From assembly GCA_937949725.1 (NCBI GenBank), contig CALECT010000040.1:8320-72319 (forward strand): a DNA stretch of 64,000 nt, written 5' to 3'. Shown here in pieces: positions 15,001 through 21,000 of the stretch. This DNA is from an uncultured Pseudanabaenaceae cyanobacterium. Lineage in GTDB: Bacteria; Cyanobacteriota; Cyanobacteriia; PCC-9006; JAAUQQ01. Made by a program: the position numbers. Position 1 is the first letter of the stretch; each line of letters opens with the position of its first letter.

Positions 15001-18000
15001 ACCAAGAAGGGCTGATCGAAGATGACGAAGCGGCGATGATTCAGCGAATTTTTCGGCTGAATGATGTCACGGCAGGAGATTTGATGACCCCTCGGGTAGC
15101 GCTGACCTATTTACGGGGAGCGAAGACTTTAGGGGAGGTCAAGGACAAGGTGATTGGCTCCCAGCACAGTCGAATCGTGGTGGTGGCAGAGTCTATCGAT
15201 AAAGTGGTTGGGGTGGCATTGCGGGCGGAGCTGTTGACCGCCCTGATTCAGGATAAGGACGCGTCGAAACTGGCCGATTTAGTGCGACCTGTGCAGTTTG
15301 TACCCGATACCCAGCGGGCGGATGTTTTGCTTAAAACGTTCCGTGAGGCGCGGGAGCATTTGATGGTAGTGGTGGATGAGTATGGTGGGGTGTCTGGGGT
15401 GGTGACGCTGGAGGATGTAGTGGAGGAGTTGACGGGGGAAATTGTTGATGAGACGGATCGAAATGTTGATCTTCAGGCGCTTGCCAGGTTGAGGAGAAAG
15501 CGGCTTTTGCGCGATCGCGGTTTTGATGCTCAACGCTAAGCCGTTCAATTCTCCCTATTCATCGGATTGCGAGAATAATGTTGCAACTTTCCGACGCTGG
15601 CTAGGAGGCTGGACTTTGAGTTGCCAATGTTGAAAATTATCGAAGCGATCGCAGTCCCATAGTCCAATTCTGGCGCCGTTCTCTAGCCGGTGGGCATTCA
15701 AGCAATAACGGCTGCTCTCCAAGCGAATCAGGTTGAAGTCGCTGTTTGGAATTGCGATGAGCTGCCACTGTTGCTTGTTGTCTTTGGCATCACAAGTCTC
15801 CAATTCAACCTGTCCGCCAGTTTCTAGTTGGGGGGCTCGCAGGCAGGCCTCCGAGCCTTCTAGCTCTAGCAAAATTGTTCCATTCCGTTGCTCCTGCAAC
15901 TGATATTTCTGGTGAGGATCTTCGATGTCGCAATGCCAAACGGTGAGGCTGTTGCCTGTCTTGCCTCGCATGCTGTTAATGCAAACATCGGTGTCGTAGC
16001 GGTTGAGCTGCACTGAGGGGGCTGCTGCCAGAGTCGGAGTTGGGATGGCGAGGCAAAGGGCAATGGCTCCAAAGACGCCTAACGGTTGTGAAAATTTCAT
16101 GATGGAATGACCGGGAATAGTGCAAGGGATTAGAGCGATCGCTGTGAATCAGGTGCTCTAAGGAATGGGAATTTCATTAGGCCTGATGCTAAGCAGGGAC
16201 TGGTCTGAAATGTCCGCAGTTGCTGTAGATGCCTAACAGGCGAATTGAATTCTCGTTCCGAACCTTTGCTGGTTAACCGAAGTATCACTTAGGCATTCAA
16301 AAAGTTCCCGGCGGTTACGAAAGCGGAAACAATCGTGACCTTGGGCCATGGGTGAAGCTATGGGTTGCTGGCGATGCTGGCGATAGCTTGTAGGTGAGCT
16401 AGATACCGTTTCAGTTTTTGAAACTGCGCCAATGCCCTCTAAATTGCTGCCTAGAATACCTGGTATGCCGTCGCGCTGAGAGATGGTTTGAGAATTCGGC
16501 TAAGCGTCAATTTTGAAACCTCGACCAGCAATGAAACGTCGAAATTCCCTTTATCTTGGCAGCATAATAGGTCGTCCTGCTACAGCTAGAGGCCTTTCTC
16601 AAACAATCTCTGAAGGCAGTAAATTGTCATGAAACTTGTCTATGTTCCTGCTGTTTTAAGTCTTGTTGTTTTAGGGAGTTTGGGGAGTCAAGAGCTCGCC
16701 AATGCCGAGCAAGCTGGGTCTGCTGCGATTGCTGAGCCGGAAAGCCCTGGCGTTACCCTGCAAGCTGAGCCTTTGTTTGGCATCTTGTCAGGTATTGCGG
16801 TGGCGGAGCCTGGTGAGGAGCCGAACATTGCAGAAGCTCCCCCAGTGGAAGTGAATTCAAATCAAGTTCAGGGAGATGATCCTCGGGATTGGCATGGTTT
16901 TTATTGTCCGCCTTGCGGAAGAGGTTAATGATGAGGCGGCAACGTCCCCAGGTGGGACTATCTCTGATGTTGGAGCCTGAGTTTTTCCAGGCTGCCCAGC
17001 CGCTGTTTGAAGCGGGGGCTGTGGAGGTGTTGGAATGGAGTTTTGATATCGCCTGGGGCGGGCGGGTTGTGCCTGTATGGGCGAGGCAGTTACTGCGACA
17101 GTTTAGTGAGCGGAATGCCTTATTGGGCCATGGGGTGAGTTATTCGCTGCTGTCGGCGGAGTTGGATAGCCAGCGGTGGTTGGATTGTTTGGCGGCGGAG
17201 TGCCAGGACTCTCGCTATCGGCAGGTTTCGGAGCATTTTGGCTGGTGCGCGAGCCAGAGCTTTCGGGATAGTGCGCCGCTGTCGATGCCGCTGTTGCCGG
17301 AGACGTTGCAAGTAGGTCAGGAGCGCCTCAAGCGTTTGGCAGATGCTGCCCAGGTGCCGGTGGGGCTGGAGAATTTGGCGTTTGCGTTTAGCCTTCAGGA
17401 CGTGAGGCAGCAGGGGGAGTTTATGGCGCGGTTGTTGGAGCCGGTGGATGGCTTTTTGCTGCTGGATTTGCATAATCTCTATTGCCAGGTTTGCAATTTT
17501 CAGATTTCTGTGGAGGCGTTGCTGGGGCTGTATCCGCTCCATCGGGTGCGGGAGTTACATATTTCGGGGGTTCTTGGAGTCAGGGGACTCGGGCTCGCAT
17601 TAGGCGAGATACCCATGACGATGCGGTGCCGGAGGCGGTTTTTGAGCTTTTGGCTTTGGTGTTGGAGCGATGTCCCCAGGTGGAGGCTGTGATTTTTGAG
17701 CGGTTGGGCAATAGCCTGGGCCGGATTGATGAGCAGTTTCGGTTTCGTTTGGATTTTGCTCGAATCAAACAAATTGTTGATAGAGCAACTGCTCCGCTTG
17801 TCGCTGTAGGAGATGAAGTTTATGCAGGAGCATGATTTGGCGATGTTTCAGGATAAGGTGCTCAAAACGCTGTGGACTCAGGATGATCCAGAGACGATTT
17901 GCAATCGGTTGGAGGCGGTGAGTCCGTCGGAGCCGATGAAGGATTATGTGCGGGAGATGGATCAGAAGATGGTTGAGCTGGCGGCAGAGCTGGTTAAGCG

Positions 18001-21000
18001 ATGGGGTCAAAAGGTTGAGTAACTGACAGTCAACCTAGGTTGCTAAGACTAATTCTTCACAAGCATTAAGTAGTTGCTGGCTGTTAGGAAGTGAGAGTCG
18101 TGTTCTCGAACCTGCAATTTTCATGACACGAGGTTCAATGAAGCCAATTGCATAACCATCGGGATAGCTGGAAGCGTACATCCTTCTCATCTTGTAGGGG
18201 AGATCTGAGGCGATAAGGCTATCAATGATTTGGCTAATCTCAGTCGGAGAGAGTAAATACTCGAAAGCCAGTCGCTGTAGCTCTTTCTCAATGACTGCAA
18301 TCATTCTGATAGCATCATCTTCCGCCAGCTTATCAAGAATGACTCTGGATGCAGAAGTTGTCATTGAGCCAGCTAATAGCCCACCGAGTAATCCACCGGC
18401 AATCGTTCCAGCACCTGGCATAAAGGCCGTCCCAATGCTTGCTCCTAGGGCATATCCACTTGCGCCTCCTGCAACTCCGGCTGCTTTAGAAGTAACGTTC
18501 TTAAGAGCCTGCCTTTTTGATATTTGCCCACGAGTAAGGTGAGCAATATCTGAGGATGATAAAACAAGTGTCGTCACAACTCCTGCTACAAAATTTCCTC
18601 TAAGAAGCTTAGAAACATTAGATTTTGCGGCAGCACCGTAAATAGGATTATTGCCTGCTCGAAAACCGTTAGCCACGAAAGCGGAGGTCTTGCTACCTAT
18701 TTTCTTCGCCAGAAAATCGCTGGTAGGCCTTAATGACTTCTCCACCCCAGTGCGTCCAATTTGAGCTGTCAAAATTGCAGATAGCCAGGTTGCACCACCG
18801 ATGGTTAGACCTGTCGAACAAGCTTGTTTAATAGAAGCTTCTAAACTTTCTCCATTCCACATAGCGTATGCAAATGCAATGGCAGCCGAAAGTCCCATGG
18901 CTGTGCCTGCAACTTGAACACCTTGGATGGCGTCATAAGTTACTGACTCAATCGTTCCAAACTTGGCAATGTTTCTTGCTTGGTTATATGTGAACCCTCC
19001 CTTTCTCACTATTTGAGAGGCTTCTGATGGATCATGTATTCCAGGAACTTGACCTCTGGATATTCGAGATTGCATTGCCTCTATAGCAGCATCATATTGG
19101 TCTGCTGGGACCTCGATTTGCATTGGAGACTGATCGCTATTGAAGTAGCGAAACTGGCCATCGTGAAAGCATTCACGGATAGATTTTGCACCAGATGCAC
19201 AGTATTTTGTCTGAACTTGGATACCATCAACTAAGCGGTCAGCACCATTCTTCAGATTGTTGCCACCAATAATTTGAGCATCCTTGCCAGAGAGAACATC
19301 TTTGAGATGATTGGCTTTCTCCGCAGCGAAACCATGACCACGTGAGGCATTGAGCACTACGTTGTCAGCGTATATTACTGAATGAGCAGCACCGCCTATA
19401 CCTGCGATCGCCTGATCTTCTGACATGTTCCTACGCTGGCGAAATGAGCTACAGAGACAATAGGAATTTTATCGTCCGTATAGTAATACACCAGTATTTT
19501 AGGTTTTCCGAAGGTTTCTAGAGTAAATCTTCCTTTCTAATTATTTGGCAGTTTCTGTCGGTAGGAGCATAAGGGAGTTGAGACGACGGCGGAGCATGTT
19601 GTAAATGGGAATGGCATACCTTTGATTCCGAGCTAAGCCTCAGTTTCTGGCTCGTTGGCATTGGCTGCTCGCTCGCCTAGCTGTCTTCCTATCTCTTCTA
19701 AAAGCTCTGTCCCCTAAGAGAACTGTGCCTTAATGTACTCCCGCCGCATCGTCGCGATCGCATCAATACTAATCCCCTTCGGACAAACCGCCTGACATTC
19801 CCCATGGTTCGAGCAATCGCCAAAACTCTCCGTCGTCATCTGCTCCGTCATCCTTAAAACCCGACTCTTCCGCTCCGGACTGCCCTGGGGCAAATGGGCC
19901 AAATGGGAAATCTTCGCCGCCGTAAACAGCGACGCCGAAGCGTTGGGACAAGCCGCCACACAGGCTCCACAGGCAATACAAGCCGCATAATCAAACGCCG
20001 CATCGGCATCCGCCTTCGGCACCGGAATGCTATTGGCCTCCGGCGCAGACCCCGCCCGCGCCGTAATGTAGCCCCCCGCCATGCTGATGCGATCAAAGGC
20101 ACTGCGATCCACCACCAAATCTTTGACAATGGGGAAAGCCGTTGCACGCCAAGGCTCTACTGTGAGGCGATCGCCATCTTGAAAATTACGTAAATACAAC
20201 TGACAAACCGACGTCCGCTCCTGGGGGCCATGGGCCTGACCATTAATCATCATCCCGCAGGAACCGCAAATGCCCTCACGGCAGTCATGGTCAAACTCCA
20301 CCGGCACCTCACCGGCCTGGGTTAGCTGCTCATTCAGCACATCCAACAGCTCTAGAAAAGACAAGTCAGGCTGGCCTTCCACGCTGTACTCCACAAACTG
20401 ACCCGGCTTGCTGGGCTCAGTCTGTCGCCAAATTTTGAGGTGGAGTTTCATAGCAAATCAAATGAGCGAAGCAACAGGGACGAACACAGGGCTATATCTA
20501 GCCTAGCGCGATCGCGAAGCAAGCCTCCTAAGGATCACATAATCCCTCACCAAAGAAATCTGCTTCCATCCAGCCGATTGTGTCCTCAGGTTAAGACTGA
20601 TGCCGAAACGCCCCCAAATTAAGGATTTCAGGCCTATAACGTAAGTAGGGCTAAGCCCACCATTGGCCTGGCCCTACTTCCGTCAAAGCTCACAAGCAGG
20701 GAGGGCGATTGCCATGGGAATTGCCAGCATTAATCCGACAACCGGAGAAGTTCTCAAGACCTTCGAGCCAATTTTAGCTGAGGAATTGGAAGCCAAACTT
20801 GCCCTCGCCACCGAAACCTACAAAAGCTATCGCACCACCAGCTTTGACCAGCGAGCCCAATGGCTACGCAAAGCCGCTGAGTTGCTAGAACAACGCAAGG
20901 CCGAACTAGCCAAAACCATGACCCTGGAAATGGGCAAGCTGCTCAAAATTGCAGTGCCCGAAGTCGAGAAATGCGCCAATCTCTGCCGCTACTACGCGGA

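Follow-up and report, generated by a model that had tools for sequence, protein, structure and literature searches.

A chryseobasin-like MNIO locus of split cyanobacterial layout, with a frame change in the enzyme gene, in an uncultured Pseudanabaenaceae genome

Introduction

The DNA analyzed here (the window) is a stretch of 64,000 nucleotides from contig CALECT010000040.1 (assembly GCA_937949725.1) of an uncultured Pseudanabaenaceae cyanobacterium. It carries, on the forward strand, a three-gene unit that resembles the loci for chryseobasin-type peptides that are made on the ribosome and modified after translation (RiPPs). The unit is made up of a gene for a short precursor peptide, a gene for an enzyme of the superfamily of multinuclear non-heme iron oxidative enzymes (MNIOs) that extends over 16928-17835, and a small open reading frame (ORF) that begins at 17813 or 17822 (Table 1). 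By its sequence, the locus belongs to the ChrH/DybH/MelH (chryseobasin-type) subfamily of MNIOs. Each sequence feature expected of this subfamily is present apart from an intact enzyme ORF, and the equivalog cut-off of the NCBIfam model is also missed. The explanation that we hold with high confidence is that the window contains a three-gene operon of the ChrH/DybH/MelH kind in the split layout of Cyanobacteria, that its products would act in the manner of their characterized counterparts, and that this copy is likely a pseudogene.

Organization of the locus

The three genes are packed end to end. The precursor gene ends with TAA (16926-16928), whose final A is also the first base of the MNIO gene's ATG at 16928, forming the sequence TAATG, and the small ORF overlaps the stop codon of the full MNIO frame at 17833-17835. 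An earlier note, made from the DNA alone, had described a chryseobasin-like MNIO RiPP locus with a secreted 99-residue peptide of hydrophobic N-terminus and terminal GFYCPPCGRG, TAATG coupling to a DUF692 gene, an overlapping gene of 66 to 69 residues, and an MNIO that would need repair. All of these are present, the last as a change of frame at a run of five G (G5), and the best NCBIfam model for the enzyme is that of ChrH, alongside a match to Pfam PF05114.

Both flanking genes are on the opposite strand, a ricin-B lectin gene at 15555-16100 and a 463-residue ORF at 18035-19426, and the operon is therefore self-contained behind an intergenic region of 528 bp (16101-16628). The weak sigma-70-like match in this region (Table 1) is one of 2 such sites found by a promoter scan, compared with 1.5 expected in shuffled sequence, and its role as the promoter of the precursor gene is only a suggestion.

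The arrangement of precursor and MNIO is not due to chance. When the 5.24-Mb genome, an assembly of 237 contigs that is 88% complete, was scanned in six frames for CPxCGxG termini on open frames 40 or more codons long, the window precursor was the single match and no orphan precursors were found elsewhere. This one frame directly adjoins, on the upstream side, the only ChrH-type MNIO of the genome, and the identical three-gene order was found in dozens of other genomes.

Table 1. Features of the three-gene unit in the window (positions are those of the whole stretch)
Feature	Position	Strand	Remarks
Sigma-70-like promoter match, weak	16539..16568	+	9/12 hexamer matches; upstream of precursor gene
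Precursor gene (ChrA/MelA-like)	16629..16928	+	99 aa, C-terminus GFYCPPCGRG
Predicted Sec/signal-peptidase-I signal peptide	16629..16706	+	Residues 1-26; heuristic
Core motif CPPCGRG, expected site of MNIO modification	16905..16925	+	Residues 93-99; fits published CPxCGxG
MNIO (MelH/ChrH-like), N-terminal 214 codons, to ...RELHISG	16928..17569	+	PF05114, NF050165
Frameshift site, G5 run	17566..17570	+	Open frame changes here; G6 in G004 and L091
MNIO, remaining C-terminal part of 88 codons, read in a different frame, GSWSQGTRARIRRDTHDD...FERLG...	17569..17835	+	NF050165, 63.7 bits, model positions 218-286
MelHc-like gene, separately encoded C-terminal helical-bundle domain	17813..18022	+	69 aa; 66 aa from ATG 17822

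The precursor peptide and its CPxCGxG core

The precursor begins with MKLVYVPAVLSLVVLGSLGSQELANA, which is followed by EQAG after the predicted cleavage site, and its C-terminal part reads DDPRDWHGFYCPPCGRG. By rule of thumb, the N-terminus has the features of a signal peptide for signal peptidase I (SPI), with a lysine at position 2, a 17-residue hydrophobic core (KD12 of 2.54 from residue 3), ANA at residues 24-26 with the putative site between A-N-A and E, and no lipobox cysteine. The 73 residues that would remain after cleavage are rich in Pro, Glu, Ala, and Gly, with a pI of about 4, and the precursor is acidic and apparently unstructured. It contains no cysteine outside the core. Orthologs with the same position and tail are found at loci L001 (YYCPPCGRG) and L011 (GYCPPCGRG), and the ratio of non-synonymous to synonymous substitution rates (dN/dS) between the window and L001 genes is 0.20.

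Conservation of the precursor next to orthologous MNIO genes, on which the earlier reading depended, is borne out by the 89 loci that were fetched. This set, which includes some few duplicates and copies of the window itself, has 52 CPxCGxG precursors beside related MNIOs. Together with the window's own these make 53 tails, of which CPACGMG is the most frequent form (17/53), followed by CPACGRG and CPGCGMG (7/53 each), CPPCGMG (6/53), CPPCGRG (5/53, the window included), and CPGCGLG (5/53), with other variants accounting for the remaining 6/53. The five carriers of CPPCGRG are the window, L001, and metagenome-assembled genomes (MAGs) of Thermosynechococcaceae, Akkermansiaceae, and Planctomycetota. 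The Pro and Arg substitutions that had been taken to mark a variant core are thus real, but CPPCGRG is a recurrent minor variant within the published CPxCGxG consensus and is shared with other lineages.

A second conserved element of the precursor is the tripeptide DPR, which lies 7 residues upstream of the core in the window. It recurs 5-8 residues upstream of the core in the precursors of L001, L003, L004, L010, L011, L014, and L016 and is common to those of photosynthetic cyanobacteria, the three closest of which also have W-H-x-x-Y. The DPR element could serve in recognition or processing; no mention of it was found in the portions of the text of PMC13056109 (PNAS 2026) used here.

Locus L010, from Acaryochloris sp. 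IP29b_bin.148, has two precursor genes (ORFs 1640-2005 and 2059-2397) upstream of a single MNIO. One precursor has a signal peptide and ends in CPPCGMG. The other ends in CPACGMG, has no evident signal peptide, and contains an additional CMFCG near its N-terminus, which suggests a substrate that may be cytoplasmic or differently exported.

The MNIO enzyme and its family placement

The MNIO gene matches Pfam PF05114 (MbnB_TglH_ChrH) with an E value of 1.3e-25, and its best NCBIfam model is NF050165 (MNIO_ChrH), which scores 241.7 bits over model positions 1-210 in addition to the second segment listed in Table 1. Scores on other NCBIfam models are 77.5 bits for BufB (cut-off 310) and 66.5 bits for HvfB. 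When the frame change is read through, a protein of 302 residues is obtained that is 52% identical to the characterized MelH, whose score on the ChrH model is similar (324 bits), and that aligns gap-free to 22 homologs. Invariant across this alignment are G214, G215, S216, and W217; R226, R227, D228, T229, and H230; and E258. A sequence search of the PDB gave no structure from the ChrH/MelH subfamily, only the distant MNIOs 8hci (E 4e-14) and 3bww.

The enzyme is sparsely distributed in the phylum. At E values of 1e-40 or lower, a ChrH-type MNIO was found in 1 of 400 other sampled genomes, and the named genomes with the nearest homologs are those of Acaryochloris, Thermosynechococcaceae, Aphanothece, Symplocastrum, and Hydrococcus.

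A separately encoded C-terminal helical bundle

Homology and structural modeling both identify the product of the small gene as the C-terminal helical bundle of ChrH-type MNIOs, a domain that in the window has a gene of its own. Of its two possible starts, ATG 17822 has the better spacing from a Shine-Dalgarno sequence (GGAG), and the resulting form has a mass of 7.81 kDa. Aligned with residues 303-365 of a fused 368-residue cyanobacterial MNIO (P0008, locus L004), the protein shows 44% identity (E 1e-17); with the C-terminus of a second fused homolog, the identity is 37%. The fused L004 protein covers positions 2-361 of the 363 in the ChrH model, whereas the pieces of the window MNIO cover only 1-286, and the small ORF therefore corresponds in sequence to the C-terminal domain of ChrH. 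The small protein also resembles MelHc, encoded next after the MNIO in Candidatus Melainabacteria bacterium SJ512 (locus L035), with an identity of 33% (E 3e-10). Since direct searches of Pfam and NCBIfam with the small ORF returned no match beyond CecR_C at chance level (E 0.07), its homology is shown through the fused homologs and MelHc. A hidden Markov model of this domain (Hc) matched a separate downstream ORF in 68 of the 89 fetched loci and a fused domain in 8. Most of the 13 loci without a match are cut contigs or Bacteroidota loci in which the fused enzyme is long and presumably divergent. An AlphaFold2 model of the small protein, built on a 34-sequence alignment, is a four-helix bundle (pLDDT 89, pTM 0.74).

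The small protein had been viewed in the earlier note as a much smaller partner of the MNIO, and the product as a macrocyclic or metal-binding peptide. In its fullest form this view would make the locus a metallophore-type RiPP whose small protein is a miniature substrate-recognition partner resembling a RiPP recognition element (RRE) or ChrI. There is precedent for such a reading, as many MNIOs act with partner proteins, several MNIO products bind copper, and MelH itself requires MelHc. The homology of the small protein, however, is to a domain fused to the enzyme and not to DUF2063, MbnC, TglI, or DUF1772, and no Pfam or NCBIfam match of those kinds was found. The model is all-helical, unlike the RRE fold, which is built on a winged helix and β-strands. 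Of the two parts of the product claim, export agrees with the signal-peptide features noted above, and a macrocycle is to be expected by analogy with related systems. Metal binding is unsupported, as the characterized subfamily products, that of DybA among them, have no chromophore and a function that the authors call unclear in the parts of PMC13056109 cited here. We regard the mini-partner and metallophore reading as highly improbable and return to the small gene as a split enzyme domain. A ChrI-like partner was also sought as a candidate in its own right and rejected, with no match to DUF1772 (PF08592) in the genome or for the small ORF.

The frameshift in the MNIO gene

As assembled, the MNIO frame runs out of frame past 17569 and stops at 17690-17692. 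The junction reads TTTC-GGGGG-TTCT, and six G are present at this site in the same-genus genome G004 and in a 91%-identical metagenome contig (L091), with TGGGGGA at L001. Reading through gives ...HISGGSWSQ..., which agrees with the invariant GGSW of the 22 homologs. The motifs RRDTHD and FERLG fall in the other frame and are lost from the truncated enzyme, which should be inactive because these conserved motifs belong to the last part of the barrel. With the enzyme gene frameshifted, the window copy perhaps makes nothing.

The frameshift is probably a genuine mutation, and the window copy is most likely a recent pseudogene. The G5 run and the truncated product of 253 residues are both found again in ENA contig L090 (3153 bp; analysis ERZ6864376), a separate assembly that matches the window in all but 1 base, so the G5 allele is probably genuine. 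Across the genome, signatures of frame breaks occur at 1.1% of runs of five or more G, compared with 1.3% of random positions and of G4 runs, and at 2.0% of runs of five or more C, compared with 1.9% of C4 runs, in a crude test that would overlook a few dozen events. With no excess at homopolymers over control sites, we rejected the idea that the break stems from an assembly that is error-prone in general. Rather less likely than a genuine mutation is an intact, active operon from which one G of the homopolymer was dropped in sequencing or assembly. Such an error would fit with the intact precursor and Hc genes, the gap-free alignment of the read-through protein, the fragmented and incomplete state of the assembly, and the position of another likely frame break of the window, around 41590, likewise at a five-base run (C on its coding strand). 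It is opposed by the same G5 run in L090, by the lack of an excess of breaks at such runs genome-wide, and by the independent decay of the locus in G004. A further argument for an error is the sequence past the shift, 87 codons that contain no stop and have, when compared with G004, a dN/dS of 0.26 (5 non-synonymous and 6 synonymous differences), so that the break is either very recent or not real.

This last observation also counts against our explanation of the locus as a whole, as do several others. The window and L090 assemblies may share reads or a study, in which case the artefact could be common to both. The summed NF050165 score of about 305 bits falls below the equivalog cut-off of 600 bits, and chemistry identical to that of ChrH is in consequence inferred rather than shown. 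The signal peptide was judged by heuristics only. Finally, the tails tested in the main text of PMC13056109, as far as it is used here, are CPACGMG, CPGCGLG, and CPACGMMM, and Pro at the first variable position or Arg at the second is not among them. As to the cut-off, it is missed as well by the experimentally active MelH (324 bits) and by a fused cyanobacterial homolog (349 bits), so that it would appear to mark off the clade of Chryseobacterium and not the subfamily as a whole.

A regulatory role for the G run is, in our estimate, extremely improbable. Two devices come into question, a -1 slip of the ribosome on G GGG G and phase variation between G5 and G6 by strand slippage, either of which would turn the enzyme on in only some of the cells or transcripts. 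A -1 slip of tRNA-Gly would restore exactly the conserved HISGGSW, and G5 and G6 alleles are both present among close relatives. Yet the shift is found in 0/22 aligned homologs, and all related loci readable across the site (the G004 remnant, L001, and L091) are in frame there; a slippery heptamer is absent, and for phase variation a run of five or six G is short. Programmed frameshifting was separately judged unlikely, as the shift is not conserved in relatives and the downstream RNA structure is not significant (z -1.5). A recent loss-of-function mutation remains the preferred account of the break.

The related genome G004 retains only the last 130 MNIO codons and the Hc gene, which begin right behind the stop codon that closes a CHAT-domain gene. 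In this locus (L008, G004:C59:6839-10243, positions 1-2110), the MNIO remnant is in frame across the G run and is followed by a 75-residue Hc gene; there is no precursor, and the initial two thirds of the MNIO are missing. The remnant is either the leftover of a deletion or rearrangement or part of a chimeric contig. Only the 3' part of the MNIO and the Hc gene are shared with the window, and since the flanks differ, synteny with L008 cannot be used to judge other frameshifts. In three other genomes of the genus (68-87% complete), no match to the MNIO locus was found. A locus that is frameshifted, truncated, or not detected in these incomplete genomes suggests that it is dispensable in the genus.

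The second likely frame break of the window lies in a region on the reverse strand (40881-41704), around 41585-41600, at a C5 run on the coding strand (cttcccccatctgg). Past this run, the frame from ATG 41692 becomes low-complexity, and the protein-like frame WQAIAQGKADVGISDAQAYLHLAQLF... continues into a 187-residue ORF at 40881-41444. An insertion sequence (IS)-type DDE transposase gene (39686-40900, PF01609) abuts the region. As at the MNIO break, the site is a five-base G/C homopolymer.

Comparison with known systems

The closest characterized parallel is the mel system of Candidatus Melainabacteria bacterium SJ512. The ChrH subfamily to which it belongs is described in PMC13056109, in the portions drawn on here, as having precursors that end in CPxCGxG, most commonly CPACGMG, and enzymes that all include a C-terminal helical bundle of about 7.8 kDa, which is a separate protein in Cyanobacteria. 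Of the precursors analyzed there, MelA1 from cyanobacteria and ChrA from Chryseobacterium are reported to have SPI signal peptides. MelH shows activity only when MelHc is present; the two form a stable complex, and the -4 Da modification does not take place without MelHc. Like the window, mel encodes a precursor, an MNIO core, and a separate Hc of about 68 residues that overlaps the 3' end of the MNIO gene; Hc identity was given above, and both precursors combine an SPI-type signal with a CPxCGxG tail. The two differ in that MelA1 is a 34-kDa TPR protein ending in CPACGMG, whereas the window precursor is a short acidic peptide ending in CPPCGRG, and in that the MNIO gene is frameshifted only in the window. 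The host of the window locus is related to photosynthetic cyanobacteria, unlike the mel host, with Acaryochloris and Thermosynechococcaceae providing the nearest named MNIO relatives. Given this published description of the cyanobacterial split architecture and of MelA1/MelH/MelHc activity, the product can no longer be said to come from an uncharacterized system, as had been proposed.

ChrA and ChrH, the chryseobasin system of Chryseobacterium (PMC10214503, 2023), share with the window the MNIO subfamily, a C-terminal motif with two cysteines, and a small precursor exported by Sec and SPI. ChrH, at 363 residues, has its helical domain fused, whereas that of the window is separate. The chr cluster further encodes ChrI (a DUF1772, or Anthrone_oxy, protein) together with an epimerase and a peptidase of the M42 family, all three of which are missing from the window locus; ChrI, a membrane protein, is dispensable according to the parts of PMC13056109 consulted. 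The products differ as well, that of ChrH being S-methylated (+10 Da) and that of the cyanobacterial-type MelH unmethylated (-4 Da). In the available portions of the literature, four-electron oxidation products of one or the other mass are shown for ChrA, DybA, ChsA, HymA, ArlA, and MelA1. For DybA, ChsA, HymA (CPGCGLG), and MelA1, PMC13056109 assigns the -4 Da product as a macrocycle with a hydantoin in the same portions. DybA/DybH and the related DAG-RiPPs of Bacteroidota have the enzyme subfamily in common with the window and would, by analogy, share the CPxCGxG chemistry (macrocycle and hydantoin, -4 Da) with it. In contrast to the window, with its separate Hc and no cysteine outside the core, Dyb-type precursors have a lipobox cysteine and become lipoproteins, and DybH is fused.

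The bufferins (BufA/BufB/BufC, PMC11626156) are also products of the MNIO superfamily with signal-peptide-bearing, cysteine-containing precursors. They differ in MNIO clade and have a DUF2063 partner, DUF2282 precursors, and copper-binding thiooxazole chemistry, and neither the window precursor nor the small ORF gave a Pfam or NCBIfam match of the DUF2063, DUF2282, Buf_6/12Cys, or EGKCG kinds. The same genome has a canonical bufferin cluster on another contig (locus L005, C183:23373-27146; ORFs 987-1292, 1402-2295, and 2389-3246). Its BufB scores 367.9 bits on NF050167 (cut-off 310), next to a 101-residue signal-peptide precursor with four cysteines that is DUF2282-like in appearance and a 285-residue protein in the position of the DUF2063 partner.

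Proposed mechanism

Gene order, translational coupling, the core motif, domain homologies, and the frameshift were established here by sequence, and the mechanism and architecture are taken from PMC13056109 and a 2026 mechanism preprint. In an intact copy, a heterodimer of the MNIO and Hc would bind the C-terminal CPxCGxG tail of the precursor in the cytoplasm, by analogy with MelA1/MelH/MelHc and DybA/DybH. An O2-dependent four-electron oxidation would then turn both cysteines, together with the backbone between them, into a macrocycle and a hydantoin, with a loss of 4 Da. The N-terminal Sec signal would direct export, with cleavage by SPI probably after Ala26 as judged by heuristics. The expected product, an acidic peptide some 73 residues long and modified at its C-terminus, would be located in the periplasm or outside the cell. 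In this genome, where the MNIO is truncated before RRDTHD and FERLG, the peptide would probably be exported unmodified unless the break is artefactual.

Neighboring genes

The ricin-B lectin gene upstream of the operon is divergent from it and encodes a secreted 181-residue β-trefoil protein (PF00652, E 3e-20). It also neighbors the operon in the near-identical contig L090 and is not found at the distant loci L001, L003, and L004. The 463-residue ORF on the other side converges on the operon and has no significant match in Pfam or NCBIfam; its C-terminal half contains long hydrophobic stretches rich in Gly and Ala that resemble membrane segments.

Implications

The CPxCGxG tail, the SPI leaders, and the cyanobacterial gene arrangement are already published (PMC13056109), and the window locus is an ordinary, and probably inactive, example of them. 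One could go further and suppose that the CPPCGRG tail with the upstream DPR-x-W-H-x-x-Y defines a distinct functional sub-class of exported chryseobasin-type peptides in photosynthetic cyanobacteria, with the G5/G6 run acting as a population-level on/off switch rather than a sign of decay, though we consider this very unlikely. As a further ChrH/MelH example of a system that is rare in the phylum, the locus adds little to the published picture. CPPCGRG, like the commoner CPACGRG, is a natural core variant that was not found among those biochemically tested in the portions of the work cited here. The precursor is a small peptide, as compared with the 30-40 kDa proteins tested from Melainabacteria. 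For annotation, the gene of 66-69 residues is better named a split MNIO C-terminal domain than a hypothetical protein or a partner.

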